DNA from: Candidatus Poribacteria bacterium
GTDB lineage: Bacteria; Poribacteria; WGA-4E; B28-G17
DNA length: 64,000 nucleotides
Reading direction: 5' to 3'
Assembly (NCBI GenBank): GCA_021162805.1
Contig: JAGGXZ010000182.1
Location: 17,009 to 81,008, forward strand
A model generated the notes under the pieces. It was not told where the DNA came from and did not search any database. It saw only the letters and a list, made by a program, of their open reading frames with translations. Made by a program: the position numbers and the translations under genes. Positions 2,968 through 54,975 of this stretch are shown piece after piece (the stretch's first letter is position 1; each line of letters begins with the position of its first letter).

Positions 2968-4107
2968 TCAGACGTATCCTGGCATCTCAGATAGGTCTCT
3001 GGCGTTCGGATGCCAGAGCCTGGTCAGATATGCCTCGAGCACGCCTCTGTTTTTATGCGGACGCTCGATACACGCTAGGACGAGCTCGTGGTCCACCTCG
3101 TCTGTCATCTGTATAAGCGCTTTGAGCCTATCCATATTGTTGATCAGCGCCCGATCGACCGGCATTCTCTCGGGGTTTATATCTATGCCGAGATACCCCC
3201 TATACCCGTGCATCTTCAGCACATATAGGGCGGCAAAGGCCTGTTCGGGGGAGATCACCCCGACGTTCAGGTCTTGGTCGTAATTACCCAGCGGTTGACT
3301 GTTCCAATGCGTATGGGCCAGCCTGCCCTGCCTCAATATCCTGCTGAACGAATACGCCAGATCCTCAAATCCCATCAGAACATGCCCCACCTCAGGGTTG
3401 AGCGTCACAAGGGCATGTCCCTCCTCAAGCAGCCTTCGGTTTTCCTCCGATGAGAGCTTTTTCTCGACGTCCTGAGCCATTATGAGTCCGTCGGCGGTAT
3501 TGCGATAGATGTTGTTGCCGCGAGGCTCGTAAGGTTTGGGCTCGATGGCGATCCTCACCCCCGGAACGGCATCCATCGCCTCGGCTAACCCCTCTTCGAA
3601 TCTATCCCACATAGCGTAGAAATCGATGCCGAAAGCCATCTCGAACCCGTCGATGCCGGGCCATACGATAGCGAAGTCGGTGTCGAGCTCCTTGTTCAGC
3701 TCAAGCGTCCTTATGGTTCGTTGGATGGCCTTACGCCTCACCTCGGGTATGGGCGATGAGAGGGAGCCGAACTCGAACTCCGGATCGTAGAAGAGACCGG
3801 GGACGATCGTGATCAGCCTTAACCCCGTATCCTTCTGAAGTTGTTTGTAAAGCTCGATGTTCTCCTCGTTCACCTCGGTCGGGTAATGTGCCTCAAGCCC
3901 TTTAAGCCCGTAATCCACCAACTCAGCGGCGATATCCAATCTCTCCTTGATGCTGAGCTCTCTTCCGTATCTGGCGTGGAATCTGCTTGCCGCGGGGGAG
4001 AAGTACCACACGCCGGCGGAGAACTTCGGCTCGAGCTTGAACTCCCTAAGATGTTTTATAAGTTCATCCCCCTTTCGGACCTTTGTCTGATCTCTCAGAT
4101 CTAACAT
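2968..4107 (-). CDS. Xylose isomerase-like TIM-barrel sugar isomerase (class I XylA-like, ~379 aa)
   Basis: RBS GGAGGG precedes ATG 4107 (MLDLRDQ). AIEPKPYEPRGN matches the FEPKPxEPRGD signature. HTHWNSQPLGNYDQDLNVG parallels the metal-site block HIDLNGQHGPKFDQDLVFG of class I xylose isomerases. Length fits class I. Confidence 0.55.
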   Translation of the reverse strand: MLDLRDQTKVRKGDELIKHLREFKLEPKFSAGVWYFSPAASRFHARYGRELSIKERLDIAAELVDYGLKGLEAHYPTEVNEENIELYKQLQKDTGLRLITIVPGLFYDPEFEFGSLSSPIPEVRRKAIQRTIRTLELNKELDTDFAIVWPGIDGFEMAFGIDFYAMWDRFEEGLAEAMDAVPGVRIAIEPKPYEPRGNNIYRNTADGLIMAQDVEKKLSSEENRRLLEEGHALVTLNPEVGHVLMGFEDLAYSFSRILRQGRLAHTHWNSQPLGNYDQDLNVGVISPEQAFAALYVLKMHGYRGYLGIDINPERMPVDRALINNMDRLKALIQMTDEVDHELVLACIERPHKNRGVLEAYLTRLWHPNARDLSEMPGYV

Positions 4108-4346
4108 ATCACCCTCCGTCGATCGGCGTATTGACCCCAAGGGGATCATTGTTATTTTAACATACCCTTTTCATCCATTACAAGCTGTAAGGGCGAGGCG
4201 TAGGGGTTTTCAACGCTTTTCACCGACACTGTAGTGGCAGGCCCCCGTGCCTGCCAGAATCGAGGGCATGCACAGGGGCATGCCCCTACCTATGCTCGAT
4301 TATGCCAAATCATTGAAAAGCCCTCGGCGAGGCGATCTCCTGCAGG

Positions 4347-4375
4347 TTTGCACCTATCCGATTCCTGTGATATAA
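4347..4375 (+). promoter_or_regulatory. Sigma70-type promoter (TTGCAC-N17-TGaTATAAT, extended -10) for the yicC-gmk operon
   Basis: TTGCAC at 4347-4352, a 17-nt spacer, TG at 4367-4368 and TATAAT at 4370-4375. It sits ~25 nt upstream of the yicC start. Confidence 0.5.
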
Positions 4376-4400
4376 TCTTGTCCGGTAATCCCGAACAGGG

Positions 4401-5288
4401 GTGAACGAATTGAAAAGTATGACGGGCTACGGGCGAAGCTCCATTGAGACACCTTTCGGCAGGCTCGTCGTTGAGGTTAAAACGGTCAATCACAGATACA
4501 GCCAGATCTCCTCTCGAATTCCCTCTCAGCTCTCATCGCTCGAACCGAAAATACTGAAATCGCTGAAGCATAGGATCGCTCGTGGGCAGATCTATCTGAA
4601 CATGGAGTTGATCTCCGATGAGGGGACCACCTTCCCCAGAAAGGTCGTGGTGGATATCGATCTCGCCAGACAGTACAAGCGTTATCTCGATTCCCTTCGC
4701 GAATCCCTTGGGATAGATGAGCCGGTTTCGCTCTCTTTGATAGGATCGATGCCGGGGGTTTTCGAGTTGGTCGAGCCCGATCTGGATGAGGAGAAGACAT
4801 GGCGGTGGTTGGAGGAGGGATTGAACGAGGCTTTGGATGCCTTGGATGAGTCGAGGCTTGCTGAGGGGGAGAGGATGAAATCGGATATGTCCCAGCGGCT
4901 TTCCCTTATCGCCGGATCGATTGAGAGGATCAAGGAGATCGCCCGAAACGACGTGGAAAGATATATGAGAAAGCTCTCAGAGAGGATGAGGGAGATTCTG
5001 AAGGGTGAATACGATGAGGCGAGGCTCATGATGGAGGCAGCCATGCTGGCTGAAAAGTCGGATGTCTCCGAGGAGATCGTCCGAATGGAGAGCCATATAA
5101 AACGGTTTGAGGAGCTGGTCGAATCGGATGATCCCGTCGGCAGACAGATGGATTTCCTGTTGCAGGAGATGCTCAGAGAGGCTACAACCATGGCTTCCAA
5201 GGCCATATCGGCCGAGATCGTCTCCGAAACGGTGAAGATGCGGTCGGAGATAGATAAATTGAGAGAGATGGCCCAGAATGTCGAGTGA
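4401..5288 (+). CDS. yicC: YicC-family stress-induced protein
   Basis: N-terminal MTGYGRSSIE is the YicC hallmark, and the rest is a charged coiled-coil-rich protein of ~290 aa. A GTG at 4401 or the ATG at 4419 could be the start. The stop overlaps gmk. Confidence 0.75.
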   Translation: MNELKSMTGYGRSSIETPFGRLVVEVKTVNHRYSQISSRIPSQLSSLEPKILKSLKHRIARGQIYLNMELISDEGTTFPRKVVVDIDLARQYKRYLDSLRESLGIDEPVSLSLIGSMPGVFELVEPDLDEEKTWRWLEEGLNEALDALDESRLAEGERMKSDMSQRLSLIAGSIERIKEIARNDVERYMRKLSERMREILKGEYDEARLMMEAAMLAEKSDVSEEIVRMESHIKRFEELVESDDPVGRQMDFLLQEMLREATTMASKAISAEIVSETVKMRSEIDKLREMAQNVE

Positions 5289-5913
5289 GGGACAGCTCAT
5301 CGTCATATCCGGGCCTTCCGGCTCGGGCAAAAGCAGTCTCGTCGATCTGCTTCTGAGGAGAAATCCATCCCTGCGCCGCTCCATCTCCGCCACAACACGT
5401 CGGCCCAGACGAGAAGAACGTGATGGCGTGGATTACCACTTCATGAGCGTCGAGAGGTTCAAGGAGGGGATGGAGAGGGGGGAGTTCCTGGAGTGGGCGG
5501 TCTATAACGGGAACTACTACGGCACACCCAGAAAAGGGGTGGATGAGGCTATCTCCAGGGGAGAGGATATCCTGCTGACGATAGAGGTTCAGGGAGCAGC
5601 TCAGATAAGGAGGATCTATCCCGATGCCCTGCTCATATTCATCTTACCTCCTTCACCGGAATCGCTGAGGGAAAGGATCAAAAGGCGCGGGAGCGAATCG
5701 GAGGAGGAGATCGAACGAAGGCTCCGTATAGCGGAGGATGAGATATCCAAGATAGAGATCTACGACTTTTTCGTCATCAATCGGGAGGGCGAGCTGGAGA
5801 AGGCCGCTGAGGAGGTGGAGAGGATCATATCGATCGGAAAACACCGTTTGACCAGGGGAAGGATCGAGAAGATCAAACGCTTATATAGGGTGAGAACTTT
5901 AGCTCCAGTATGA
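5278..5913 (+). CDS. gmk: Guanylate kinase
   Basis: P-loop GPSGSGKSS, then SATTRRPRxxExDGVDYHF and YYGTP, typical of guanylate kinase. The yicC-gmk-rpoZ neighbourhood is the conserved one. Confidence 0.9.
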   Translation: MSSEGQLIVISGPSGSGKSSLVDLLLRRNPSLRRSISATTRRPRREERDGVDYHFMSVERFKEGMERGEFLEWAVYNGNYYGTPRKGVDEAISRGEDILLTIEVQGAAQIRRIYPDALLIFILPPSPESLRERIKRRGSESEEEIERRLRIAEDEISKIEIYDFFVINREGELEKAAEEVERIISIGKHRLTRGRIEKIKRLYRVRTLAPV

Positions 5914-6371
5914 CCGGACTAAGCATAGAGGATATCAAAGCAAATCTTGATAGTATGATGCGGAATCTCCATCAGGAGTTCGGAGATCGACTTATAGCCG
6001 TTGTCGTTTATGGAAGTTATGCTCGTGGATCGGCTAAACCGAAATCTGATGTTGATCTTCTGGTGGTGGTGAGGGGATTGCCGCGAGATTGGGATACCAT
6101 TCACCGTTTGGAGGATAGGTGGACGTTCAAAGGGCGACAATTTGGAAAGCGCTTCCAAGTTATGTTTGTAAGCCCGGAGGATGTAGAAGATTCCGTGGAA
6201 TATGCGGCGCCGTTGATGCTGGAGATTTATAACGCTCATAAAGTTATCTTTGATCAGAATGGATTCTTCAGAAACTGTATAATTCGTATGGAGCATCTCA
6301 TAAAGGAACGAGGAATCCGAATGAAAAGACAGGGGGTCTGGGAGGTTCCTGAGAGTGTTATCCCATCGTGA
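5910..6371 (+). CDS. Pol-beta-type nucleotidyltransferase (MNT-like toxin-antitoxin partner)
   Basis: GSYARGSAKPKSDVDLLVV is the GS...D.D minimal NTase motif. The start overlaps the gmk stop (ATGA). Composition is visibly more AT-rich than the flanks. Confidence 0.7.
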   Translation: MTGLSIEDIKANLDSMMRNLHQEFGDRLIAVVVYGSYARGSAKPKSDVDLLVVVRGLPRDWDTIHRLEDRWTFKGRQFGKRFQVMFVSPEDVEDSVEYAAPLMLEIYNAHKVIFDQNGFFRNCIIRMEHLIKERGIRMKRQGVWEVPESVIPS

Positions 6372-6810
6372 TATCAGCCGGGCTTTACTGATAGAGGCAT
6401 ATACCGATTTAAAGGCAGCGCAAGTACTAAGGCAGGCGGGCATTTACGCTCGATGTATAGCCCACTGTCAACATACCGTGGAAAAGACGCTTAAGGCGGC
6501 ATTGGCCATTAGGGATGTGCTCATCACCGATCGTCATGAAATATCAGAGGATTTCAGGCAGACTTGCTTTGACTGGGAATGCTGCAGCGAATTGGCGGAC
6601 ATCGCTGTTGAGATGGAAGCAATGAGGTCCCGCACGGAATATCCGCTATTTGGACGCCGAGATCTACCTATATGGCTTCCCTCTGAACGGTATACGGAAG
6701 CCGATGCAGATGAGGCTTTGGAGAAAACTCGATATGTGTTTAACACGGTGAAGTGCCGGTTATCGGACGAGTATGATATCCATTTCGAGATCGGAGGTGA
6801 TAAGGTATGA
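6355..6810 (+). CDS. HEPN-domain protein (partner of the preceding NTase)
   Basis: About 150 aa, all-alpha-like composition, immediately overlapping the NTase. The NTase+HEPN operon is a classic pairing. The stop overlaps the rpoZ start (ATGA). Confidence 0.6.
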   Translation: MLSHRDISRALLIEAYTDLKAAQVLRQAGIYARCIAHCQHTVEKTLKAALAIRDVLITDRHEISEDFRQTCFDWECCSELADIAVEMEAMRSRTEYPLFGRRDLPIWLPSERYTEADADEALEKTRYVFNTVKCRLSDEYDIHFEIGGDKV

Positions 6811-7145
6811 GAAACGTGATGATCGAAGATCTGGAGGAGATCGTCGGAAACAAGTATCTTGCTGCCAATATCGCGGCCAGACGAGCACGCCAGCTTAACA
6901 TAGGCGTTAGGCCTAGGATCAAGACAAACCACGTGAAGTATCCTTCCATCGCTTTGGAGGAGCTGGCCGCCGGAGAGTTGGAGTATAAACCGCTGCCGCG
7001 GGAGGCCAAACCGGATAGAGCTCTCTATCCCAGCAGAGAGGTGGACGAGGAGATCTCCGAGGAATTCCGCAAACAGATGCGATTTGTCACCGAGAAGGAG
7101 GAGATGAGAATGGATAGAGAGGCAATGGAGTTCGAGGATACCTGA
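6807..7145 (+). CDS. rpoZ: DNA-directed RNA polymerase subunit omega
   Basis: LAANIAARRARQL matches the RpoZ core (LxxxAAKRARQL). Small protein in the conserved position after gmk. Confidence 0.8.
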   Translation: MRNVMIEDLEEIVGNKYLAANIAARRARQLNIGVRPRIKTNHVKYPSIALEELAAGELEYKPLPREAKPDRALYPSREVDEEISEEFRKQMRFVTEKEEMRMDREAMEFEDT

Positions 7146-8347
7146 TGGACGCCCTCAAGGATAGGAACATACTTCTGGGAGTCACCGGAGGGATAGCGGC
7201 TTTTAAGGCCGCCTCCCTTGCCGGTCAGCTCATCAAGTTGGGAGCGAGCGTGAAGGTGGTGATGACCCATAATGCCACCCAGTTCATCTCGCCGCTCACC
7301 TTTCAAACGCTCTCGCGCAACCCCGTCTATCTCGATATGTTCTCCCCTATCAGTTGGCAGCCCGAACATATATCGCTGGCCGACTGGGCTGAGCTTTTCG
7401 TCATAGCCCCGGCGACCGCCAACGTCATAGGCAAACTCGCCCATGGGATAGCGGACGACCTTCTGACGACGATCGCTCTGGCCGTCAGGTGTCCCATTAT
7501 ATTGGCGCCCGCCATGAACTCCAACATGCTCGATAACCCCATCCTTCAGGATAACCTGGGATATCTGGAGGAACAGGGGTTCTTCATCATCGCTCCCGAA
7601 TACGGTCCCCTCGCATGTGGATATGAAGGGAAAGGGAGGCTGGCCGATTTAGACGTGATCGTCGAGACGATCAGGATGACTTTGACACCTAAGGATCTTG
7701 AAGGGATCAAGGTTCTGGTTACAGCCGGACCGACGAGGGAGAGGATTGATCCGATCAGGTTCATCACCAACAGATCCAGCGGTAAGATGGGATACGCCTT
7801 GGCGAGGGCCGCCCGCGACAGAGGCGCTCAGGTAACCCTGATAAGCGGCCCCACATCGCTCAGATCTCCTCCGTATGTGGAGTTTATCCAGGTCGAAACC
7901 GCCCTGCAGATGAAAGATGCCGTGATGGAGCGGTTCAAATGGGCGGATGTGCTCATCATGGCGGCCGCCGTGGCGGATTACAGGCCGAAAGAGAGCTTGG
8001 AGCGTAAGCTCAAAAAATCCGATTCAGAGTTGGTTCTCAGGCTCGCGCCCAACCCTGATATCCTTGCCGAGCTGGGCGGAGAAAAGGGAAATAAGATCCT
8101 GGTCGGATTCGCCGCGGAAACGGAACACGTCGTCTCCAACGCCCTGGAAAAACTGCGCGCCAAGAATCTCGATCTGATCGTCGCCAATAACATCCTGGAA
8201 CGAGGAGCCGGATTCGAATCCGACACCAATATCGTCACGATAATAGACGAAAGGGGAAAGGCCGAAAAGCTTCCGATCCTTTCCAAGGATGAGGTCGCGC
8301 ATAGAATCCTGGATAGGATATCAGAGATGATCCGCGGTGAAGGTTAG
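7145..8347 (+). CDS. coaBC: Bifunctional phosphopantothenoylcysteine decarboxylase / phosphopantothenate-cysteine ligase
   Basis: N-terminal flavoprotein fold (ILLGVTGGIAAFKA...PAMN) plus C-terminal DFP/CoaB ligase (GPT.E.IDPVR.I.N.SSGKMG...AAVADYRP). About 400 aa. Confidence 0.9.
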   Translation: MDALKDRNILLGVTGGIAAFKAASLAGQLIKLGASVKVVMTHNATQFISPLTFQTLSRNPVYLDMFSPISWQPEHISLADWAELFVIAPATANVIGKLAHGIADDLLTTIALAVRCPIILAPAMNSNMLDNPILQDNLGYLEEQGFFIIAPEYGPLACGYEGKGRLADLDVIVETIRMTLTPKDLEGIKVLVTAGPTRERIDPIRFITNRSSGKMGYALARAARDRGAQVTLISGPTSLRSPPYVEFIQVETALQMKDAVMERFKWADVLIMAAAVADYRPKESLERKLKKSDSELVLRLAPNPDILAELGGEKGNKILVGFAAETEHVVSNALEKLRAKNLDLIVANNILERGAGFESDTNIVTIIDERGKAEKLPILSKDEVAHRILDRISEMIRGEG

Positions 8348-9146
8348 GCCCAAAAAAAGGTTAGGACAGAACTTCCTCAAGGATGAAGGATACCTCGCCC
8401 GTATCATCTCATCGGCGGAGGTGTCGGAGGGCGATCTTGTCTTGGAGATCGGAGCCGGCACAGGTGAGCTGACGCAGTTCCTGATCGATCGGGCCGATCA
8501 GGTGATAGCGATCGAGGTAGATGCGGACCTGATCCCAATCTTGGAAGGGAGGTTCTCATCTTCATCCAAGCTTCATCTCCTTCACGCTGATGCCCTGAAA
8601 CTGGATTGGGTGAACCTGATCCGGGGGATCGATTCCTGTCGCAAAGCTAAGCTCGTATCGAACATACCCTATTACATAACCGCACCTCTTATCGAGAAGG
8701 CGATAGAAAGCAGGTCGGCTTTGAACCTATGTGTCCTGACCGTCCAGAAGGAGGTCGCTCTACGGATATGCGCCTCACCCGGCGGGAGGGAATATGGATC
8801 TTTGAGCATAATGGTTCAGTATCACGCCGACGTGGAGAGGCTTTTCGACATACCGCCTGGAGCCTTCCGGCCGAGCCCCGGCGTCTCATCCAGTGTCATC
8901 AGGATCAGATTTAGGGAGGAACCGAGGGTAAGGGTGAAGGATGAGAAGTTGTTTTTCAAGATCGTCAGGGCGGCCTTTCAGCAGAGACGCAAGATGATCG
9001 TAAACGCACTCAGATCACTCGGACTCGATAGGAAAAGGCTTGAGGAAACGTTAAAGCGAGCCGATATACCTCCAGAGAGCCGACCCGAAATGCTGAGTCT
9101 GGAGGAGTTCGGGAGATTAGCCGATGGGATGGCTGAACGCGTTTAA
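8337..9146 (+). CDS. rsmA: 16S rRNA (adenine1518/1519-N6)-dimethyltransferase
   Basis: PKKRLGQNFL at the N-terminus, the SAM-binding motif LEIGAGTGELT, and ~269 aa. Confidence 0.9.
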   Translation: MKVRPKKRLGQNFLKDEGYLARIISSAEVSEGDLVLEIGAGTGELTQFLIDRADQVIAIEVDADLIPILEGRFSSSSKLHLLHADALKLDWVNLIRGIDSCRKAKLVSNIPYYITAPLIEKAIESRSALNLCVLTVQKEVALRICASPGGREYGSLSIMVQYHADVERLFDIPPGAFRPSPGVSSSVIRIRFREEPRVRVKDEKLFFKIVRAAFQQRRKMIVNALRSLGLDRKRLEETLKRADIPPESRPEMLSLEEFGRLADGMAERV

Positions 9147-31050: not shown

Positions 31051-34000
31051 ATGGAGAGAGGAAACAGGAGGCGTGGGACAGGAAAGAGGAAACAGAAAAG
31101 ATATCTCGGTCTTCTGCCTCCTGACTCCAGTCTCCGGTCTATCTGTAGAGCGATAACGCTCGTGACGTTTCTCCTCATAACCGGCTTCACGGCTTTCGGG
31201 GATAGCCCCGACACCTACATACTGCCCCTGTCACCGCCCAACGTCATCGGCCATTCGGATGTGACGATCTGGTGGAGCGGTAGACCCTCCGATGAAGCCG
31301 GATTGATCGGATTTTATTACAGCCTGGACGGCTCTCCCTTCACCTTCACCGATTCAAACCACGTCACCCTTTGGAATCTGACCAAGGGAGAGCATCGTCT
31401 GCTCGTCAAATCGATAGACAGCACGTTGAGACAGGACGATCAGCCGGCCGAGCTGAGCTTCAGGATCTCGCCGGTGGTGCGAGGTGAGCCGGAGGTGAAC
31501 GATACGCCCGATCTGGCGGTGGATCTGCCTCTGGGGGTGGAGATGAGAGGAGTGAGCCTGCTCGGCGGGGGAGACGTGGACTGGTATAAGGTCGCATTCC
31601 CTCAGGACGCTACCGCAGCGACGGTGACCTTCCGGAGGGATGGCGGAAACTCCTCCACTGAGATCTCGCTCTACCTGAACACGCCCTCCGAGGGGAATAA
31701 GGCTGCCTCCTTCAGCGTGAACGTCTCGAACGGCGAACGCGGATCGGCGACCGTCGGCATCTCTCCCGATTCGACCCTTTTCATCAAGGTCGCCCCGTCG
31801 CCCGACGAGAAACATCCCCTCTATATCCTCTCAGCCGATTACATCCCGGCCTCTCCCCATGGGATATGGGAGGTTGAGGATAATTCATCGCCCGCTTCCG
31901 CCACTCGATTGAGCCTCGTGGAGGATCGGGTCACGGCCATCGGCATGAAAAACGGGGATCAGGATTCATCCGATTGGTATAAACTGCATTTCGACCTCAC
32001 CTCTCCAAAGCTACTCAGGCTGAATCTGTCGAGGCTTCAAGCCGCCGGTGAGACATCGGTTCAGATCTTCAAGGGAGCGATCATCTCCGACATCTCCCAG
32101 GTCTCCGCCCTCTCCGTCTCGCCGCTGAGCAATGGATGGGGTTCGATCTCGTTCCTGGTCTCGTTCGGCGACTATTACGTCAGGGTGTCCAACGATCAGG
32201 AGGGGGTGGGAAACACCTACCAGATCACCCTCACGCTTGGCGATCTCCCGCCCGGATCAGAGTATGAACTTGAGCCTAACACGGTCTCCCCCCAGGAAAA
32301 CCCCGATTACGTCACTCCGCTCGGCGTGGAGATGGGGATCTACGGATATAGCTGGGGCGATGGGGATGATGACTGGTTCAAATTCAACCTCGGCAGGAAG
32401 GGTCTGCTCTGTCTGACGCTTCAGAGACCTGAGGGGATCGGTCAGACGGAGCTCCAGCTTTTCAACTCCAATCTGATACCGATCTCCTCCTTTCAGATCT
32501 CCCCATCAACCTCTCAGCGTGGAAGCCTCCCCGTTCCCGACGCCGATCCAGGAACATACTACGTCAAGATCGTCCCGTCGGGTGAAAGGGAGACGACGAG
32601 ATATAGGCTGAACGCCCTCTTGATAGGCTCGATAGAGCATAACGCTCAGGAGCCGCTCGGTCTGGGGGATGAACTCAGGGTAGCCGTAAATTGGACCGCC
32701 GGCAGGGAGGTGTATCTCACGCTGGAGGGGGATTTCCAGGACGAGGAGGCGAGGAAGCGATTTGAGAGGATGCCTTTGAGCGAGGTCTCGCCCGGCCGGT
32801 ATGAGCTGTCATATGTGTTGAGGGAAGGCGATTCGGTTGAAAACGCCAGGATGCTCTTCACCTTCAAGACCCCTCAAGGGGATGAGGCGCTTTACGAATA
32901 TTCCGAGAGGATCACCCTCCAGGCGGGAAAGGCCATTATAGATGCCAAACACGATGCCGATCACATCCTCAAGTCGGGCGAGAGGTTGACCGTAACCCTA
33001 ACCTCCTCGATAACCGACGGCACCGCCTCCTTCGACATAGTTGGAGGGACGAAGGATCCTTCGCCCTTACTCAGAGGGGGGATACCGCTCTACGGAGACG
33101 GCAGGGGGAACTATTCCGGCTCATACGTCGTCCAGGAGGGCGATCTGGTGAGAGAAGGAATCGTAAGGGTTAAACTCGTCGATAGATTCGGCACGAAGTA
33201 TGAGTTTGAGATAAAGGAGCCGGTTAGCATCGATGCCGTCAAACCCTCTCCACCCTCAGAGTTGAGGGGCGAGGACGTGCCGGAGGATAACGGCTTCCAG
33301 ATACAGTTGAGCTGGAGCCTTTCGCCCGATCCGGACGTATCGGAATACAACGTATATATCTCGCCTATCCCCATCACATCGCTTCAGGCGCTTTCGCCGA
33401 TAGCTCGCGTTAAGGGGAGGTCATGCCAGGTGCAGGTCGAGCGGAACGGCGTGGGCTATTATTTCGCCGTCACGGCGGTTGACATGGCCGGAAACGAATC
33501 GGATCTAAGCGATGGGGCCATAACGGGACCGGTTCAGGCGTTGGATAACCTCCCGCCAGCGGCTAAATCGGCATCACACGACGTAACCGGCATAGTTTCA
33601 ACCCTGAACCCCGTCATAAACGTCAAGCTCCAATCCGAGCCCGGAATCACTCCCCTTCTGACGATCCCCGGTCTGGTTCGGGATCTTCCACTTGAGGAGA
33701 AGAAAGACGGGGTCTACACCATAAGCTATTCGGTCCCCAAAGGGGTGGAGCTGAGGGACGTCCTGCTCTCCCTTAAGCTCAAGGACAAAGCTGGAAACGA
33801 AAGCTCGATCGATGTTCCCCCACCCATCACGATCGATACGAAACCGCCTCAGATCAAATCGGTCAAACATGACGGAACGAGGCTGCTGGTGGAGGGGGAT
33901 GAACTGAAGATCACGCTTGAAGGCGAGGTGGGATGTCAGGGATGGTTCGATATCGAAGGGCTGGTGAAGGGGATCCCGCTCTATGACGACGGCGAACACG

Positions 34001-37000
34001 GGGATGGCGCCGGCGGAGACGGGGTCTACGTCGGGACGTATCGGGTGAAGACGGGAGATAAGGCGATGGAGGCAGCGGTGGTGGCTCATCTGAAGGATAA
34101 GGCGGGCAATGAGTCGAGCATGGAAGCAGTCAGAAAGGTGAATCTGGACACAACCCCTCCCTCCATATCAAAGGCGAAGGTCGAGGGTGAAAGCTTCAAG
34201 CTGGGGGATGTGGTGAAGGTTGAGCTTTGGGGCGAGGCGGGATGTCAGGGTAAATTCCGGATAGAGGGGCTGGGCGTTGAGGGGAAGCTGTACGATGACG
34301 GCGAACACGGGGACGGAGAGGCGAATGACGGCATGTATGTGGGAAGCTGGAAGGTCGGGAGAGGCATCGGGGGAGAAGATCTGTCGGTGATAGCTATCCT
34401 TGAGAAGTCCAACGGCAAGTCGGTTCAGATCGAGGCGGGCAGTGTCAAGGTGGACGGCGTTCCCCCGCCTGAGGTGGAAGGGGTGAAGGTCGAGGATGTC
34501 CCGGACGATGAGGGATACAGGGTCAGGGTCAGTTGGCAGGGAGTGAAAGTTGAGGACCTGAAGGGATATCTCGTCTACCTCAGCTCCGACAGCATAGGGG
34601 ATCTCTCGACGATGAGCCCTATTGCCGAGACGGAGAAGGAGAGCGTTCTGCTGGATGTGGAGGAGAACGGGCGGCAGTATCATTTCGCCGTGGTGGCCGA
34701 GGACGAGGCGGGCAATATCTCCGCCTTAGGCGCCGGCAGTGTCACTGTGGGAGACGCGCTGGATAATCTCGCTCCTCCGAAGCCCATCGATCTGAAAGCC
34801 GAGATGGTGGAGGGGGGAAGGATCTACATCGGATGGGAATACCCGAGCCTACCGGCCGACTGGGCTGCCTTCAAAGTTTATATATCACAGAATCCAAATC
34901 TCTCCGGAGGAGAACTCGTCCGGATCACCCATAACCAGGTCAGATCGGCCGATCTGCCGGCAGATAAGGATGGGGATTACTACATAGGGCTCAGCGCCGA
35001 GGATATCAGCGGGAACGAGTCGGAGATAATCCGGATCGGGCCGATCAGGGCGGGCGCAATCTCAGCCATGGATGAGAGGCTTATCTCCCTTCCAAAAGGG
35101 ATCATAAGGGGGGATGGCGTGCTCGTCTGGTGGAGAGGATGGAAGAATGGAGGGACGAAAGATTTCAGATATCGCCTGGATGGAGTTGAGGGGGAAGCTG
35201 AGGGACCATATCTTCTCATCCGATCGCTCACCCCAGGCGATCACGAACTGGAGATAGAGCTTAACGGAGAGGTTATATCCCGCGAGTTTCGAATCGAGCC
35301 GATGGAGCTGAAACTGGACGGGAAAAAGGAGACCATCCTCCCCAACGCCAAGCTCATCGGCCCCGGCACATGCAGCCTCGTCCTGATGAGAGACGCCACG
35401 CTCAATCTGGTCGGCGAAAACGGCGGCGTCGAGGTAAAGCTCTATCGAGACGATGACCTTCTTATGGAGGGCCAGGGGGCGATATCGCTTAAGGCGGGGA
35501 TATATAGGGTGGAGACGAAGGGAAGCGTGACCATCTATCAGAGTCCCCTCGCAGCAGATGCGGATATGGAACCCAACGATGAGGATGGCTTTCCCCTTCA
35601 TGGCGATTCGATCATCTCAGGCATGATCCAGAGAAAGGGCGATGTTGATCTCTACCGCCTCCGCGTTGAAGGAGGAGAGAGGCTGGCCGTGACCTTGATC
35701 TCCTGGGGCAACCTCCAGCTCGGTATCAGGGACGAGAGGGGAACTGAAGTGGAAACCGATGAGGACCAGGATGGGGGATATCGGTTCTATCTGAGCCATC
35801 CCCTGAGCGCGGGGGAGTACGTTATCGAGGTTAAGGGTGATGCCGGGGCGATCTATCAGATAGGCCTGATCATCCTGAAGGGCATAGGGGTCGATCGAAG
35901 GGCGATGATGAAAGCCGGGGATCTGCTGAGGGTGACCGTCGATTGGGCGACGGCCGGCGAGATATGGGGCGAGGTGAAGGGATTGATCGAGCCCGTGAGG
36001 CTCTCCGGAAGCGGAGGGTTGATGGGAATGGAATATAGGATAAAGGACGGCGATGATCTCTCAGACGGCAGGGTGAGGCTGGAATTCAACGTCTCAGGCG
36101 AGGTGATCCCCTTCGAGATCCCCGGCGTGAGGATAAACGTGGACACCGTCCCTCCCAGGATAACCCGGGCTCAGCATGACGCCGTCAAACCGCTTAAGGC
36201 CGGGGATAAGATCGGGATCGAGGTGGGCGGCGAAAGCGGATGCGAGGGGTGGTTCGAGATAACGGGAATCGCCGAGGAGATACCGCTTCAGGAGAAGGAG
36301 GCCGGAAGGTACGAGGGGGAATATCAGGTGAGGGAAGGGGATAACACGTCGGGCTCTGACGTGATATGCTATCTCCGAGACGGGGCCGGTAACGAGACCA
36401 AGGCGGTCGTGAAGGGCAGATCGGGCGAGTTCGACAAGGTCGTGATCGATACGCTCCCGCCCCGTATAGATGAGGTGAGCTATGAGGGAGAGGGGGTGCT
36501 AATTGAAGGACAGATCCTCAAGGTGATCGTGAAGGGTGAGGCGGGCTGTCAGGCTTGGTTCGATATCGGCGAACTCAGACATGATCTCCCGCTTGAGGAG
36601 AAAAGGGAGGGGGAATACGAGGGAAGCTATCAGGTGAAGATGGGCGATCAGGCCCTGGGCGTCAGGATAATCGCCCATCTGAAGGACGCCGCCGGAAACG
36701 AGAGCGTCGTCGAGTCGCGGGACGCCCTGGACATAGATACCATCCCGCCGCAGATAGAGTCGGTCGAGCACGATGCGACGAGGACCCTTAGGCTCGGCTC
36801 AGTTCTCACCGTGCGCGTTAAGGGGACGCCGGGCTGCGATGCCAGATTCTCGATAGAGGGGGTCGTCGAAGACCTTCCACTCGGTGAGACGGGAGATGGG
36901 AATTACATCGGAACCTATACGGTCAAGGAGGGCGATAGCGCCGATAGGGCGAAGGTGATCGTTCGCCTGGTCAAACCAAACGGGAAGTCCGCCTCAAAAT

Positions 37001-40000
37001 CGGCCTCCCTCAGGATCTCAATCGACACCGATCCGCCCGAGCCGGTCCAGGGGGTCACTGCTGCCGATAAGCCTCTCGATGAAGGATTCACCCTGATTCT
37101 ATCCTGGGATCGATCGGATGAGCCTGACTTCTACGCATACAGGATCTATCGTTCGCCCACGCCCATCCTCTCGACGGAGGAACTTAAGCCGATCCTCGAG
37201 CTCAGATCGGCGGATATCACCCGAACCGAGGTGAATGTGCCGGAGAACGATTCGGACTACTACTTCGCCGTGACGGCGGTGGATGAGGCCGGCAACGAAT
37301 CGAAGCTGTCGCTTAAGTCGGGGGGCTCCATCTTCGGCCCCATCAGAGCCCTGGATAACCTCCCCCCGCCTCCCGTCACGGGCGTTCGGGCCGAGGATCG
37401 GCCGAGCGATCTGGGAGGTGTGATCGTCCTCAGATGGGATGGGCCCTCCCCGGCGGAGGACTTCAGCCGGTATAACCTCTACGTCTCAAGAGAGCCGATC
37501 GCCTCTACGGAAGGGCTCAACCCGATAAAAGTCCCCGATCGGAACGTCACGGCCTATGAGGTGCAGACGGCGGACGGGGTGGATTACTATTTCGCCGTGA
37601 CGGCGGTGGACAGATCGGGCAATGAGTCCCCCTTAGCTACGACGTCCGTCTTCGGACCGGTTCAATCCATCCCGAACATACCTCAGGGTGAGCCCGTGCC
37701 CGGCCGGATCGTCGCCGCTCCGCTGGGATTATCGCTCTCCGACGCTGTGATATTTCATCTTTCCCGGTGGGTTCCCTCGCCCGAGCCGAAACCCATCCCC
37801 GGATACCTGTATCGATTGGATGACGGATCATATGAGCTTTCCGCGAGCAGCCATATCGCCTTTTTCGGGCTCGCCGACGGGGGACATGTCTTTTGGGCGA
37901 AACCGGCGGATCGCCCCGACACGCAGCCGATCAAATGGGAGTTCAACGTGTTGAGAAGTCCCGTGAGGGAATCCGAGCCGAACGACACACCTGAAACGGC
38001 GTTCCGCCTGAGCTCCGGCCAGCCGGTTGTGGGAACCAACTCCGATGACGGCGATGTGGACTGGTTCTCGATACAGATCGACTCACCGGGGATGCTCGAT
38101 ATTACCTTCGGAAGGGAGAAGGGGATCGGGCGGAGCACGATCTCGATTTTCCATGGGTTGGAGACGGCCAAGGCGATCGATGAGTTCACCGTGGACCCCT
38201 CCACAGGCGGCAGAGGCCACTCGAGCGTAGGGGTCTCGCCCGGGCGGTATCTGGTAAGGGTTATCTCTAAGTCGGAAAACCCCGCGGCGGAGTATCGCAT
38301 CTGCGCTGTCTATCGCGAGCTCAAGCCGATCTACGCCTGGGAGGTCGAGCCCAACGACGAGTGGATGGCCGCGAACGCGGTTCGGATCGATAACGCCCTG
38401 GAGTTGATCGGCGAGGGAGGAGGAGGTGATAAGGACTGGTTCACCTTCACGGAGACCGTTGAAGGCGAGATGCTGGAGCTGAAGCTCATACGATCGGGCG
38501 GAAAAAGCACGATCAGGCTGATCACATTTTACGGATCGCCCTCCGAAGGCGGGGTTCAGGTGGACGAGCTGAGTCTGGATTCCGATCATGCGGAGGCCGA
38601 AAGCTGGGTGGGATTAAAAGCGGGAAAGTATTACATGCTTATAGAGAGTCCCGATAAACCTCCCCGATTTGAATACTCGCTTCTCCTGATCAAGAGGAAA
38701 CCCGAGGGATCGATGGAGTTCGAGCCGAACGATAAGCCCGATATGGCTTCCGGTATATCGGTTGACGACGTAATATCCTGCAGAACCTTCTCGAACGGGG
38801 ACGTCGATCTATACGCCCTTCAGGTCAAATCGCACGGATCGCTCGCCATCGGAATCGAGAGGGCGAACGCAGTGGGGAAAACGATAGCGGAGCTGAAACG
38901 GCTCGACGGCACGATGATCGCCTCGGCGAAGGCCGATCCCTCAAATGAGGGCCGGGCCTCCTTGAACGCGGAGGTCAACCCCGGAGGATATCTCCTGGCA
39001 GTCAGGACGGAGAACGAGAGGCCGGGCGATTATACGATCACGACCGCTCTGGTGAAATCCGCCTTGCATGATGCCCGAAAGCCGCTCGGCATCGGCGATA
39101 AACTGAACGTCCGGATCGAGTGGCTCCCCGAAAAAAGGGTCACGCTCACCCTGCCCAAGGTGATCAGGGACATCGAGATGAATGAGGAGGAGCCCGGGGT
39201 TTATACGGCGAGCTATACGGTGAAGGAGGGGGATACACTTTCCGATCAACCCTATGTGAGCCTCTTCCCTGACGTCTCGACCTCTGAAGCGGCGAGGCTT
39301 TTCCTCCAGCCTCAGATTCTGATAGACACGATGCCGCCCGGGATAGAGGAGATCTCCCATGACGGTCACGATCCGATTCCGCTCGGCGGAACGTTGCACG
39401 TTAAGCTCAAAGGCGAGCCCGGCTGCAAGCTCGCATATTTCGAGATCCGGAAAGGCGATTTCCTGAGAAGGGTCGAGATGGAGGAAAAGGAGAAGGGGGT
39501 TTATGAGGGCGAATACACCGTTGTCTCCGGGGATGACGTCCGGGGTGCCTCCGTGGTGGGGTATCTGGAGGATGAGGTCGGGAACGTCAGCAGCAGAGAG
39601 GCCTTCACGCCTGTGACCTTCGACACCTTACCTCCGGAGATCACCGATCTCTCAGTCCTTATCTCCAGGGGAGGAGGGGATTTCGTCCCTGTCGACGTGA
39701 CGTCCGACAGGGTTTTAGGAGAGAGCGATTCCCTCAAGGTCGTCATCAGATCTGAGCTCAACGCTAAAGCCGAATTCGAGATCGAAGGGTTCAAATCGGG
39801 GTTGAAGCTGAGAGATGACGGCGCTCAGGGGGATGAGGTGGCCGGTGACGGGATATACGCCGGAATCTACGTCGTCCATAGGGGCGACTCGATCGAAAAC
39901 ACCCCCATCAAGGTCATCGTCACCGATAAGGCCGGCAACTCACAGGAGTTATACGCGCCGGTTACGATCACCATAGATGCTGTCCCGCCTAAGATCCAGG

Positions 40001-44270: not shown

Positions 44271-46598
44271 ATGATCTCAATTCAAATTCTGGTTCTTCCC
44301 CTATTCCTTTTCTCAGCGGATCTCATCCCGAATGGAGGTTTTGAATCCGGCCTTTCGGGATGGAATAAAGTATGGACTCGTGAGCCTGGAACAGGTCAAG
44401 TTTTCCTAGATGAGAGGATCCGTCATAGCGGGAAACGATCTGCCAGGATAGAACATAAAGGCGAAAAGGACTGGAGCTTTGACCCCGACCTGCGTCTCCG
44501 GGCCTGTCCGGGCGACCTTTTCAAACTCAGGGCGTGGGTGAAGATCAAAGGAAAGGGATCAGTAACGCTCTGCGTTGTGACATACAATGGGAAAGGTGAT
44601 GTCATCAAGTGGGTCTTCGCCCCAAAATCAGTTCGGGGGACGTGCGATTGGCATCCGCTATATACGAGATTTGTTATACCGCGGGGAGTCTCTAGAATCC
44701 ATCCTCGCTTGATCGGAAGCGGTCCAGCTATAATATGGCTGGATGATTTCTCGATGGAAAGGGAGGGCAACGTGATGGAGATGCGGGATGAAGGGATGCC
44801 GTCGACGTTGAGTTTGAGCAATAAAACCATCTCGGTCACGCTCCACACCGACGATGCAGCCCTCTCCGTGCTCGATAAACGCACCGGGGAGATCTGGACT
44901 CAACGTCCTAAAGGTCAGGACGTGATCCTCAGGAGCGCAAGGATGGTGGATGATAACATAGAGATGGAGCTGTTCCACGTCCCCTCGGCCCTAGAGGTGA
45001 AGGCGACTCTCAAGCTCGACGGCGATCTGCCGGAGTTCACCCTTTCGCTGTCGGCCAAAGGGGATCTGCTGAGCCCCCTCAGGTTTCCACATCCCTTTGT
45101 GACCGATCCCGGCACCTACCTTGTCATTCCGATGAACGAGGGGATCTCCTATCCCGTCGATGATGAGAGCATCCCGCCCATGAGGCTCATCGCATACGGC
45201 GGACATGGGATCTGCATGGCGTTTTGGGGGACGACGGACGGTGGGAGAGGTTATATGGCCATAATTGAAAGCCCTGATGATGCCGCCATACGGATAGATC
45301 GGGTGGAGAGCAGGCTATGCGTTGCGCCGGAGTGGGACGCACAGAAGGGGAAATTCGGCTATAAACGCTGGCTCAGATATGTCTTCTTCGATAAGGGCGG
45401 ACATGTCGCCATCTGCAAGCGATATCGCTCCTATGCCAGGGAGATCGGGCTTTTCAAGACGCTTGAGGAGAAACGCAGGGAAAACCCAAATGTGGATCTT
45501 CTCATCGGAGCTGTGAACGTATGGTGTTGGGAGAGAGATGCTCTTGCGATCGTTCGGGAGATGAAATCGCTGGGGATCGACCGGATCCTGTGGAGTCATA
45601 GGGAAAAGCCGGATGTGATCGAAAAGATGAACGAGATGGGGATCCTCACCAGCCGATACGATATCTATCAAGACGTGATGAATCCTGAAAACTTCAAGCA
45701 TCTCCGAGGCGTACATCCCGATTGGCCCACGGAGGCCTGGCCGAAGGACATCATAATCGGTCCGGACGGCGATTGGGTGAAGGGATGGCGGGTCAGGGGA
45801 AAGGACGGCAGATGGTATCCGTGTGGTGTGCTCTGTGACAGACAGGCCCTTAAATACGCCCGAAAACGCATACCCGAGGAGCTTAAAACCCATCCCTACC
45901 GATGCCGATTTATCGACACCACCACTGCATCCCCCTGGAGGGAGTGTTATAGTCCGGATCATCCCATGACCAGAAGTGAGAGCAGACATTGGAAGATGGA
46001 GCTTTTGAGGTTCGTCTCCCAGGAGATGGGATTGGTATGTGGAAGCGAGACGGGACATGATGCCGCCGTGCCCTATGTGCACTATTTCGAGGGAATGCTG
46101 AGCCTCGGCCCCTATAGGGTGCCGGATGCGGGACGCAATATGCTTAAGATCTGGGAGGAGGTGCCCGAAAGGGTGGCCAAGTTCCAGCTTGGACATCGAT
46201 ACCGACTCCCGCTTTGGGAACTCGTCTATCATGACTGCGTTGTGGCACAGTGGTATTGGGGAGACTACAACAACAAACTGCCGGCGCTCTGGGACAAGCG
46301 AGATCTCTTTAACATCCTCTACGGCACGCCGCCCATGTTCATGTTCAACAGGGAGATATGGAATCGCTACAGGGATCGTTTCGTCCAGAGCTACAAAAAC
46401 GTCTGTCCCGTGGCCCGTGCTGTAGGATATGCCGAGATGACCGACCACCGCTTCCTGACCCCTGATCGGGATGTTCAGCAGACGCTATTTTCAAACGGGG
46501 TTATCATCACGGTCAACTTCGGCGATAAACCCTATCATCTGCCCGACGGGACCGAGGTGCCGCCCATGGGATTTCACGTAGCAGGTGTAAACAGATGA
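44271..46598 (+). CDS. Secreted carbohydrate-active enzyme candidate: N-terminal CBM4/9-like beta-sandwich plus a large putative glycoside-hydrolase domain
   Basis: Signal peptide. ADLIPNGGFESGLSGWNK...WLDDF is typical of CBM_4_9-type sugar-binding modules. The remaining ~600 aa are enzyme-like (many conserved W/D/E/H blocks) but I cannot assign a GH family by eye. Confidence 0.4.
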   Translation: MISIQILVLPLFLFSADLIPNGGFESGLSGWNKVWTREPGTGQVFLDERIRHSGKRSARIEHKGEKDWSFDPDLRLRACPGDLFKLRAWVKIKGKGSVTLCVVTYNGKGDVIKWVFAPKSVRGTCDWHPLYTRFVIPRGVSRIHPRLIGSGPAIIWLDDFSMEREGNVMEMRDEGMPSTLSLSNKTISVTLHTDDAALSVLDKRTGEIWTQRPKGQDVILRSARMVDDNIEMELFHVPSALEVKATLKLDGDLPEFTLSLSAKGDLLSPLRFPHPFVTDPGTYLVIPMNEGISYPVDDESIPPMRLIAYGGHGICMAFWGTTDGGRGYMAIIESPDDAAIRIDRVESRLCVAPEWDAQKGKFGYKRWLRYVFFDKGGHVAICKRYRSYAREIGLFKTLEEKRRENPNVDLLIGAVNVWCWERDALAIVREMKSLGIDRILWSHREKPDVIEKMNEMGILTSRYDIYQDVMNPENFKHLRGVHPDWPTEAWPKDIIIGPDGDWVKGWRVRGKDGRWYPCGVLCDRQALKYARKRIPEELKTHPYRCRFIDTTTASPWRECYSPDHPMTRSESRHWKMELLRFVSQEMGLVCGSETGHDAAVPYVHYFEGMLSLGPYRVPDAGRNMLKIWEEVPERVAKFQLGHRYRLPLWELVYHDCVVAQWYWGDYNNKLPALWDKRDLFNILYGTPPMFMFNREIWNRYRDRFVQSYKNVCPVARAVGYAEMTDHRFLTPDRDVQQTLFSNGVIITVNFGDKPYHLPDGTEVPPMGFHVAGVNR

Positions 46599-46612
46599 AG
46601 GGGGCAGGGAAA

Positions 46613-46843
46613 ATGGCTGTGCGCGATATAACTATCGCTAAGATTCGGCAATTACCCGAATCCTTAGTTCAAGAGGTAAGCGATTTCATCGATTTTCTGC
46701 TGATGAAACATGATAAAACACGCTGGCTGTTATGGATACATTTCGCTGAAGCCTTAGAGCTAGCCGAATCCGATTTTGATGAATATCTGGCTAACCTGGA
46801 GAACTATGAAGATCGCCTTGCGCGTGGGGAAATCCAATGGTGA
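46613..46843 (+). CDS. Type II antitoxin (DUF2281-like) paired with a MazF/PemK toxin
   Basis: About 76 aa. AKIRQLPESLVQEVSDFIDFLLMKH resembles DUF2281 antitoxins. The stop overlaps the toxin start. AT-richer than the flanks. The alternative upstream start at 46595 overlaps the previous gene. Confidence 0.5.
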   Translation: MAVRDITIAKIRQLPESLVQEVSDFIDFLLMKHDKTRWLLWIHFAEALELAESDFDEYLANLENYEDRLARGEIQW

Positions 46844-47181
46844 CTATACATCGTGGTGACGTGGTACTATGTGACTTAAACCCGATAGTCGGTACAGAAC
46901 AATCGGGTATACGGCCCGCCGTTGTTGTTCAGATTGATCGTGCGAACGCTGTAAGCCCTCATACGATCATCGTGCCTTTTACAACAAAAATCCGACGAGC
47001 TCTTTTGCCTTCTCACGCCTTTGTTCCCGCAGGGATCGGAGGTCTGAGCAGAGATTCGGTAGCACTTTGTGAACAGATCCGTGTGATAGATAAGCGAAGA
47101 ATCATTAAAGTCCTTGGTCACTTGGATAATCCATATCTCGAAGAAATAGCGAAGGCCTTGCGTACGATCCTTGGATTATAA
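46837..47181 (+). CDS. mazF: MazF/PemK-family endoribonuclease toxin
   Basis: GDVVLCDLNPIVGTEQSGIRPAVVVQ matches the PemK/MazF N-terminal motif (GDIv.vdf.P..G.E..g.RPalVls). About 114 aa. Confidence 0.75.
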   Translation: MVTIHRGDVVLCDLNPIVGTEQSGIRPAVVVQIDRANAVSPHTIIVPFTTKIRRALLPSHAFVPAGIGGLSRDSVALCEQIRVIDKRRIIKVLGHLDNPYLEEIAKALRTILGL

Positions 47182-54284: not shown

Positions 54285-54704
54285 ATGACCATAGAAACAA
54301 TAACACGATACCTTCAAGAGAGTCAAGCCCTTGAGGAGAGAGTCCGTGGAGAAAGCTTCCAACAGATAGAGAGAGAAGTCTTTCTATACGTGAAGAGGAT
54401 AGGAGTAGCTCTTATGACAAGCATTCTCAACAGGCTATCACATGAAGATCATGAAGAGAGGAAAGGAGAATATGAAGGGGAATTTCAAGGGTATAGGAGG
54501 AGGAAGATAAGAACGATAATGGGAGAAGTTGAGTATAAGAGAGCCTATTACTGGAGCAAAGAGAGAGGAGGATATGCGCCATTTGATCAGAAACTGGGCC
54601 TGGATGGAGGGAACTTATCACCCTGGCTGAAAGAGGGGGTAACACTGCTTGCTCCAGCGCTTTTAGTTTCATGGCCTGGTCTTGTGAAAACCCCTGGTAT
54701 TTAG
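54285..54704 (+). mobile_element. N-terminal fragment of an ISLre2/UPF0236-family transposase (pseudogene)
   Basis: RRRKIRTIMGEVEYKRAYYWSKE...YAPFDQKLGL resembles the UPF0236/ISLre2 transposase block (R.R.i.T.fGei.f.R..Y.......Y.LDE.LGl). The ORF degenerates into junk after ~115 aa. Confidence 0.4.
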
Positions 54705-54834
54705 ATTTCCACTTAAAGAAGGTTGATTGTGACACCCCATATTTCCTGCATACGGCGGCAATGGTGGTGTCAGGTAGCTGTGATTCAGCCAGTATCTTTA
54801 TGATCTGGTCTATACTGAACTTCGATTTGCCCAT
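54570..54834 (-). mobile_element. IS3-family transposase OrfA-like fragment (HTH)
   Basis: MGKSKFSIDQIIKILAESQL...TIAAVCRKYGVSQSTFFKWKSKYQG is the classic IS3/IS911 OrfA HTH N-terminus. Downstream sequence is degenerate, and no OrfB follows on this strand. Confidence 0.5.
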
Positions 54835-54975
54835 TCTCCTGTCCCCCTTTATCTGCGTTATATTCTTCCATACTCCACTCAATTTGTTCCAGTTTTTGGG
54901 GGGCAGGTCAATCCAAAGGGTAGGAAGCAATACAACGGTAGGGTTGAAAGGAGCTTCAGAACTGATGATGAGGAG

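Follow-up and report, generated by a model that had tools for sequence, protein, structure and literature searches.

The 64-kb stretch of Candidatus Poribacteria DNA analyzed here (contig JAGGXZ010000182.1; hereafter the window, in whose numbering coordinates are given unless another locus is named) carries a cassette of two genes between gmk, encoding guanylate kinase, and rpoZ, encoding the omega subunit of RNA polymerase. The cassette encodes a minimal nucleotidyltransferase (NTase; MNT as a family term) and a HEPN protein, and belongs to the Class II HEPN/MNT modules. The element is mobile and dispensable and does not represent a new type of system, and its horizontal origin as a foreign insertion is well supported. 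The full reading that we prefer, at a probability of roughly 0.6, is that of a horizontally acquired Class II cassette in the gmk-rpoZ operon that acts as a dispensable, selfish mobile module, with the HEPN protein harmful and the NTase neutralizing it. This kind of cassette is known and abundant; the site, and the unusually complete history preserved there, are what is unusual.

The gmk gene occupies 5278-5913 (+; Guanylate_kin, 2.7e-45; TIGR03263, 1.2e-66) and rpoZ 6807-7145 (+; RNA_pol_Rpb6, 2.6e-12; TIGR00690, 1.4e-13). Between them lie the genes for the NTase (5910-6371, +; 153 aa; NTP_transf_2 PF01909, 2.2e-9; Polbeta PF18765, 8e-9) and the HEPN protein (6355-6810, +; 151 aa, GTG start; PF05168, 3.3e-14), whose open reading frames (ORFs) overlap by 17 nt. 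The gmk TGA is shared with the NTase ATG in an ATGA at 5910-5913, and the HEPN TGA with the rpoZ ATG in an ATGA at 6807-6810. Exact NCBI matches (MCD6507756-58) belong to Candidatus Poribacteria bacterium. An earlier note on this DNA had described such a pair between gmk and rpoZ, joined to each of them by an ATGA overlap; ORFs, junctions and Pfam agree with this description, and Pfam, motif and structure matches identify the products as an NTase and a HEPN protein. The note's premise that gmk-rpoZ adjacency is conserved also holds, as the junction is otherwise uninterrupted: in the 33 distant loci with a recognizable rpoZ after gmk, rpoZ starts -12 to +130 nt from the gmk stop. Spacings of 0.6-1.0 kb were found only in Poribacteria loci.

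The inserted segment of ~0.9 kb (5894-6795, +) is foreign in composition and absent from sister lineages. The GC content at third codon positions (GC3) is 0.448 for the NTase gene and 0.500 for the HEPN gene, compared with 0.656±0.039 for 32 long genes of the window. When length-matched chunks of host sequence are examined, none of 175 has a GC3 at or below that of the NTase gene, and one of 175 falls at or below that of the HEPN gene. Codon-usage scores place both genes at or below the 0.6th percentile, and gmk, rpoZ, coaBC and yicC in the middle of the distribution. The insert had been called visibly AT-richer than its flanks, and by both measures its two genes prove to be extreme outliers. 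Vertical inheritance as native genes is ruled out by this composition, by the empty sites of sister lineages and by a synonymous divergence (dS) of 0 (see below).

A pattern-based metagenome scan with gmk recovered only relatives at least 92% or less than 50% identical and missed all those at 65-87%; these intermediate relatives were recovered by a word-indexed protein search with gmk. The same yicC-gmk-rpoZ(-coaBC-rsmA-hypothetical-fliL) synteny is present without the insert at loci L110/L111, L112/L113, L114 and L116, whose gmk products share 83%, 87%, 67% and 65% amino acid identity with that of the window, respectively. The comparison of related junctions that the earlier note had proposed thus yields four Poribacteria lineages that are empty without trace and a fifth, L115 (gmk 87% identical), with a scar only. 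A scar was also considered in L112, where 19 extra nt gave no significant match (p = 0.82), and L112 is scored as empty or erased. Because same-synteny relatives lack it, the insert is the derived state of a small subclade, comprising the window and L020 (one species), L021, and L004 with L022 (a second species). Flank identity is 95-98% for L021 and 86-90% for L004/L022.

Alignment with the empty sites shows that an insert is indeed present where the earlier note placed it (5910-6810), but that its true bounds are ~5894-6795. In this alignment native gmk reaches ~5893 (ending LYRV; cf. SYEV in L110 and LYGV in L115), and the final six codons of the present gene (RTLAPV) and its stop come from the cassette leader. 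On the right, the native gmk-end/rpoZ leader GGAGGTGATAAGGTATGA (6793-6810, +) is kept in the empty L110, L112, L114 and L116 and in L115; this segment contains the rpoZ Shine-Dalgarno (SD) sequence, the right copy of a GGTGA pentamer (6796-6800), the HEPN stop and the rpoZ ATG. The native motif ahead of rpoZ is G[GA]GGTGAT-N6-7-ATGA, which takes the form GAGGTGATAGAGCATGA in L110, GGGGTGATAAAAGATGA in L112, GGGGTGATCGGTTATGA in L114 and GGGGTGATGAGGTATGA in L116. Since window positions 6793-6810 match this motif, the last five HEPN codons (GGDKV), the HEPN stop, the rpoZ SD sequence and the right ATGA are native. The HEPN ORF simply continues through into the native rpoZ leader. In every relative rpoZ starts ATG-AGA, and the TGA is thus built in. 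To call the pair spliced exactly into the junction is therefore an overstatement, as the right ATGA is the native rpoZ start region caught by a read-through HEPN ORF. A better description is an insertion into the gmk tail after which both broken frames ran to the next stop, with compact coupling maintained.

The GGTGA pentamer occurs at both boundaries of the insert, with the left copy (5889-5893, +) lying within a native SD-like GGGTGA, 907 nt from the right copy; as a direct repeat of 5 nt it is weak evidence. Homologous cassettes bear AGGTGA in their leaders. The repeats would fit integration of a circular cassette through a short-homology crossover at an SD-like motif; 5 nt prove nothing. 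A search around the insert for a target-site duplication, inverted repeats or att-like sites returned this pentamer and nothing longer, and the flanking DNA common to homologous cassettes is limited to the SD-like AGGTGA leader and wzt-derived similarity. Poribacteria also differ from one another in the native gmk/rpoZ junction: the gmk stop falls within the rpoZ ATGA in L114 and L116 and 10 nt ahead of the rpoZ ATG in L112, and in L110 gmk extends 31 nt into rpoZ in another frame (L110 4001-4666 versus L114 1148-1783). The gmk tail is evolutionarily soft, which may be the reason that an insertion there was tolerated.

The relatives document four states at this one site: naive, intact, HEPN-deleted and scar. 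The L115 scar, located between gmk and rpoZ, consists of 37 nt corresponding to window positions 6331-6367 (33/37 identical), with a Smith-Waterman score of 54 against 16.3±2.2 for 2000 shuffles. It covers the 3' end of the NTase gene and the ribosome-binding site and start of the HEPN gene, including the segment with the HEPN SD sequence GGGAGG (6340-6345, +), which lies within the NTase 3' end, 9 nt ahead of the GTG at 6355. The L115 lineage thus carried the cassette at one time and later deleted nearly all of it. As the scar has diverged by 11%, much like the flanks, the insertion is older than the separation of these lineages. In the first ~68 nt of the insert, too, the window and L004 have diverged about as much as in the flanks (differences at 5895, 5907, 5915, 5928, 5948 and 5961), and L021 is a mosaic at those six positions. 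In L021 the NTase is intact (98% amino acid identity), and the HEPN gene has suffered deletions of ~59 nt and ~240 nt at short direct repeats, namely GGGCTTTAC/GGGCATTTAC and two GAAAAGAC/GAGAAAAC runs of "EKT" codons, leaving a frameshifted stub of 29 codons.

The body of the cassette has a different age. Between the window and L004/L022 the tract at 5962-6826 (+) is nearly identical, with three mismatches in 865 nt (6078, 6118 and 6566), whereas overall identity across the 9.7 kb of shared synteny is 87.1%, and 300-nt windows outside the cassette average 86.7±4.3% with a maximum of 93.3%. Perfect-match runs reach 448 and 261 nt within the cassette versus at most 65 nt elsewhere, and dS is 0 for the HEPN gene and 0.34-0.55 for gmk, coaBC, rpoZ and yicC. 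An assembly chimera is ruled out as the source of the near-identity by two independent, agreeing assemblies for each species (L004 with L022; the window with L020). The intact copies are far younger than their host species, which is most simply explained if recombination between lineages recently replaced the body of an old insertion. The proposal that the module has become part of an essential operon therefore stands in part. It was acquired horizontally and lies inside the operon, but it is unstable there, having been deleted in L115, being in decay in L021 and having been recently re-homogenized between species.

Goddard and Burt are said to have proposed a cyclical model of invasion, degeneration and loss for homing endonuclease genes and inteins. 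The present locus resembles such a cycle in having naive, intact, degenerate and scar states at a fixed site, and intact copies much younger than their flanks. It differs in that no endonuclease is involved, so that spread would need ordinary homologous recombination across the gmk/rpoZ flanks. We regard as a tentative possibility, and a rather doubtful one, that the cassette follows a homing-like cycle at this site, of invasion, fixation, HEPN degeneration, scar and re-invasion, with the conserved, essential gmk and rpoZ serving as homology arms for ordinary recombination across species boundaries, and without a nuclease of its own. If true, the near-identical intact copies amid flanks with dS of 0.34-0.55 would represent a cassette-limited, module-driven sweep, and the loss of HEPN with the NTase kept would be the first comparative evidence that a Class II HEPN protein without the Rx4-6H motif is a genuine toxin.

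The NTase contains an exact GSX10DXD motif (G35-S36-X10-D47-V-D49) in which G35, S36, D47 and D49 are invariant in 27 homologues, and it matches PF01909 at 38 bits (cut-off 21). Its AlphaFold2 model has a pLDDT of 94, and the closest structures found by Foldseek are Hailong HalB, MntA, ANT(4')/KNTase, AadA and HI0073 (E 1e-6 to 1e-3; TM 0.45-0.6). Structure thus does not separate the role of an antitoxin from that of an enzyme. The best NCBIfam match is ANT(4')-I (2.2e-8 over 112 residues), with ANT(4')/KNTase structures at TM 0.58. No DNA-binding domain was found by Pfam in either the NTase or the HEPN protein.

The HEPN protein matches PF05168 at 53.5 bits (cut-off 22) over profile positions 3-115 of 117, and its AlphaFold2 model is a helical bundle (pLDDT 84). 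The top Foldseek matches are 1wol, 3o10, 1ufb, 1o3u and 2hsb (TM 0.62-0.77), and the closest structures are thus the classical HEPNs ST0689, sacsin, TT1696, TM0613 and AF0298; HepT structures match only at E ~0.7-1. Searches against PF01934 (DUF86), NCBIfam and PADLOC gave no match. Among 24 homologues (47-73% identity), the invariant residues include R33, H37, E43, K44, K47, H61, S64 and D66, with E43-x3-K47 forming an Ex3K motif. The block E95-Y96-P97-L98-F99-G100...P105-W107-S110 is also invariant and R93 nearly so, and the loop R93-T-E95-Y96-P-L-F-G aligns to the classical T-R-Y-P motif of TM0613, TT1696 and ST0689.

These features place the pair in Class II. Modules of this class occur in thousands, especially in archaea and thermophiles, and Makarova and colleagues reportedly predicted them, in 2009, to be toxin-antitoxin (TA) systems. 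The cassette agrees with HI0073/HI0074, TM0613, TT1696 and ST0689 in having both Pfam families above their gathering scores, MNT encoded 5' of HEPN, overlapping ORFs, GSX10DXD in the MNT, and a HEPN protein without RX4H that combines a Tyr beside Pro (classical T-R-Y-P, here R-T-E-Y-P) with Ex3K and a conserved His; its nearest structures, as noted, are classical HEPNs. It departs from them in that the NTase, at 153 aa, is longer than typical MNTs of ~100 aa, that the Arg of the Y-P motif is two positions off, that the HEPN loop is extended (invariant EYPLFG...P-W-PS), and that it sits inside an essential housekeeping operon, unlike stand-alone Class II loci. Class II pairs (PF05168/PF01909) are described as having no RX4HXY, a conserved Tyr and a retained GSX10DXD (Yao et al., 2020; PMC7641770).

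The type VII HepT/MntA system (Class I) shares with the cassette its gene order, the MNT fold and GSX10DXD (MntA 7bxo/6m6w, E ~1e-6), as well as a conserved Tyr, near a conserved Arg, that could accept AMP. The cassette differs from it in that its HEPN protein is not a DUF86 protein, lacks RX4H and matches HepT structures only at the level given above, and in that its NTase scores 31.2 bits against the NCBIfam MntA equivalog NF047752, below the cut-off of 60.

MNT-HEPN dyads are predicted TA systems in which the MNT is the 5' antitoxin (Anantharaman et al., 2013, PMC3710099; PMC7641770). In the lineages for which context is available, the NTase is intact in 8/8 and the HEPN gene broken in 4/8, by the deletions in L021, a frameshift in L001, a C-terminal truncation in L106 and an in-frame stop in L108. 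Such HEPN-only decay is the pattern expected for a harmful HEPN protein and unexpected for an obligate two-subunit enzyme, and it favors the former. Where intact, both genes are under purifying selection: in pairs with dS < 1, dN/dS (the ratio of nonsynonymous to synonymous divergence) is 0.05-0.10 for HEPN and 0.15-0.19 for the NTase. In other genomes, the settings of homologous cassettes (59-73% amino acid identity) are unrelated to this one: their neighbors are PIN, TumE, DUF4160/DUF2442 and further NTase/HEPN modules, and they frequently interrupt wzm/wzt polysaccharide-export operons. Homologue context, purifying selection and asymmetric decay favor a TA reading of the pair, which is plausible by analogy and from a small asymmetry of decay.

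The main rival is a split two-subunit nucleotidyltransferase, in which the HEPN subunit would bind the substrate and complete the active site of the NTase, with a small molecule or a third macromolecule as target. This is the model proposed for HI0073/HI0074, after the two domains of kanamycin nucleotidyltransferase. It draws on the retention of the invariant E43-x3-K47 in a HEPN protein without Rx4-6H, on the resemblance of the NTase to the ANT(4') N-domain in both sequence (2.2e-8) and structure (TM 0.58), on the presence of HI0073 among the structure matches, and on the purifying selection on both genes. HEPN domains without catalytic residues have also been described as exapted substrate-binding domains (Anantharaman et al., 2013; PMC3710099). 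Nevertheless we consider a split enzyme unlikely: joint decay would be expected, yet HEPN is lost or broken with the NTase intact in half of the lineages, the cassettes sit within arrays of bona fide TA-type modules, and frequent transfer, decay and re-supply suit a selfish module better than a metabolic enzyme.

A role in anti-phage defense or abortive infection, in which the NTase produces a nucleotide or oligonucleotide signal or senses infection, the HEPN protein is the effector and spread between species reflects positive selection by phages instead of addiction, would explain the cassette-limited sweep over a species boundary, which is the outcome expected from selection on a defense gene. 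The NTase matches the PADLOC PDC-S09 model PDLC04903 at 1.3e-15 and CBASS-type cyclase models weakly, which is compatible with defense and overlaps with the TA reading, and Hailong HalB is among its best structure matches (E 7e-7). However, PDC-S09 is a candidate defense family only, of unvalidated function, the HEPN protein has no PADLOC match, and the HalB match is limited to the NTase core of ~100 residues (TM 0.46-0.48). In the window, the cassette is not flanked by phage or defense-island genes, and its repeated loss (L115, L021) shows that it is frequently dispensable. Defense is in our view improbable.

Under the preferred reading of a selfish module with a harmful HEPN protein, the cassette inserted within the final codons of gmk, immediately ahead of the rpoZ ribosome-binding site, in an ancestor of a small group of species. 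With no promoter or terminator found in it, it would be transcribed with yicC-gmk-rpoZ-coaBC-rsmA and translated by ribosomes coupled to gmk and rpoZ. One lineage has since deleted it to a scar and another has lost HEPN, and in the two lineages with intact copies recombination across the conserved flanking genes recently replaced or re-homogenized them. HEPN would act as the harmful partner and the NTase would neutralize it, most likely by nucleotidylylating the invariant HEPN Tyr96, by analogy with MntA/HepT. A conserved C-terminal Tyr has been proposed as the nucleotidylation site (Anantharaman et al., 2013; PMC3710099). Because the Rx4-6H motif is absent, HEPN toxicity would have to use another site (E43/K47/H61/R93) or non-catalytic RNA binding. 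Some MNT-linked HEPNs are known to lack the motif, for which alternative histidines or non-catalytic action are possible, and some motif-less HEPNs were still toxic in a genome-scale screen (Anantharaman et al., 2013; PMC3710099).

Several points weigh against this reading. The alignment check for the Rx4-6H RNase motif suggested in the earlier note came out negative: across the 24 homologues no Arg in a conserved column has a His at +5 to +7. The note's "addiction module" can be kept as a hypothesis only, given the missing motif and a Class II group with "no biochemical studies", whose TA status needs validation (Yao et al., 2020; PMC7641770); no later experimental work on Class II pairs, and no report of a TA system between gmk and rpoZ, was found in the literature searched. 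Toxicity and AMPylation are argued by analogy, and the Tyr96 loop is modeled at low confidence (pLDDT < 50, residues 92-101). The asymmetry of decay comprises eight lineages and alone is not significant. With neither an autoregulated promoter nor a DNA-binding antitoxin apparent, the classical logic of addiction is not obvious inside an essential operon, and co-transcription of the cassette with yicC-gmk-rpoZ-coaBC-rsmA is read from gene overlaps. All compared sequences are metagenome assemblies, and L004, the GTDB representative of the second species, has at its positions 1682-1837 a ~55-nt duplication of the NTase 5' end followed by 100 N, placed exactly where the cassette begins on the left. 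Strain heterogeneity there probably gave rise to a scaffolding artifact; the independent assembly L022 is clean.

The operon is a run of overlapping plus-strand genes, yicC-gmk-NTase-HEPN-rpoZ-coaBC-rsmA, spanning 4401-9146 (ORF list, Pfam and NCBIfam). It begins with yicC (4401-5288, +; Pfam YicC-like_N and YicC-like_C) and continues beyond rpoZ with coaBC (7145-8347, +; Pfam) and rsmA/ksgA (8337-9146, +; RrnaAD), the final overlapping gene. Stop/start overlap is the rule throughout, with 11 nt shared by yicC and gmk, 1 nt by rpoZ and coaBC, and 11 nt by coaBC and rsmA. A consensus scan identified a sole plausible operon promoter, a sigma-70-like candidate upstream of yicC (TTTGCA-18-TATAAT with TG; 4347-4376, +), with the proviso that the consensus may not suit Poribacteria. 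With the same proviso, the scan found no promoter-like or terminator-like site within the insert (5894-6795), which would therefore depend on the operon. There was no Rfam match in the insert, and no paralogue of either protein was found elsewhere in the window. Antisense ORFs across the cassette on the minus strand (5919-6443, 174 aa; 6534-6932, 132 aa) have no Pfam match and were treated as chance, being most likely a by-product of coding-strand composition.

A parallel to this arrangement is relA-mazEF of E. coli, where a TA pair follows a stringent-response gene and is co-transcribed with it; in both cases a TA-type pair lies inside a housekeeping or stress operon and is, for the cassette presumably, transcribed with it. 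The mazEF genes stand at the operon end and have their own autoregulated promoter, whereas the cassette lies between operon genes, shows no promoter in the scan and is coupled in translation to the gene on either side. Its position between gmk and rpoZ, this tight coupling and the retention of intact copies in two species could also suggest a domesticated regulator that adjusts the expression of rpoZ/coaBC, or the nucleotide and stringent-response physiology tied to gmk and omega. We consider this very improbable, as sister lineages with the same operon manage without the cassette, one lineage has deleted it and another has lost HEPN, its composition is unameliorated, and homologous cassettes occupy unrelated operons.

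Contigs with a 68%-identical NTase/HEPN cassette (L101-L105, about 3100-8450; also L001-L003) hold an array after wzm. Its order is [NTase-HEPN], a wzt 5' fragment (aa 1-181), [DUF4160-DUF2442], a wzt 5' fragment (1-161), [unknown-TumE], a wzt 5' fragment (1-63), [PDDEXK_3] and wzt, and every small cassette in it stops a few nt ahead of a fresh copy of the wzt start. The array looks like the product of serial single-crossover integration of circles carrying a cassette and a piece of the target gene.

The remaining compositional outliers of the window are a DUF2281/MazF pair (46595-47181) and an insertion sequence (IS)-type transposase ORF (54427-54930), and these are likewise mobile. The former is a second TA-type pair, with a DUF2281 antitoxin (46595-46843, or alternatively from the ATG at 46613) and MazF/PemK (46837-47181; PF02452, 5.5e-29; GC3 0.39). 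It sits between genes for a GH129-like glycosidase and a MacB/FtsX-type permease, in the same orientation and with gaps of 0-14 nt, and the first ATG overlaps the preceding stop as ATGA, as in the NTase/HEPN cassette. The low-GC (0.45) ORF at 54427-54930 (-) encodes transposase helix-turn-helix domains (HTH_Tnp_1, 2.2e-13) and is probably an IS remnant; a second low-GC (0.45) ORF, at 54976-55314 (+), has no Pfam match. A single ORF of 3658 aa occupies 31051-42027 (+).

The locus indicates that a mobile two-gene module can inhabit a highly conserved operon junction with no expression signals of its own apparent, making use of a stop codon and a ribosome-binding site that belong to the genes it splits. 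It also calls for caution in operon-based annotation and in taking "exact" junctions as proof of a precise mechanism. The natural series at one site, from naive through intact and HEPN-deleted to scar, together with a young cassette in old flanks, yields testable predictions on which partner is harmful and on how such modules persist, and makes the locus a tractable natural system for Class II modules.

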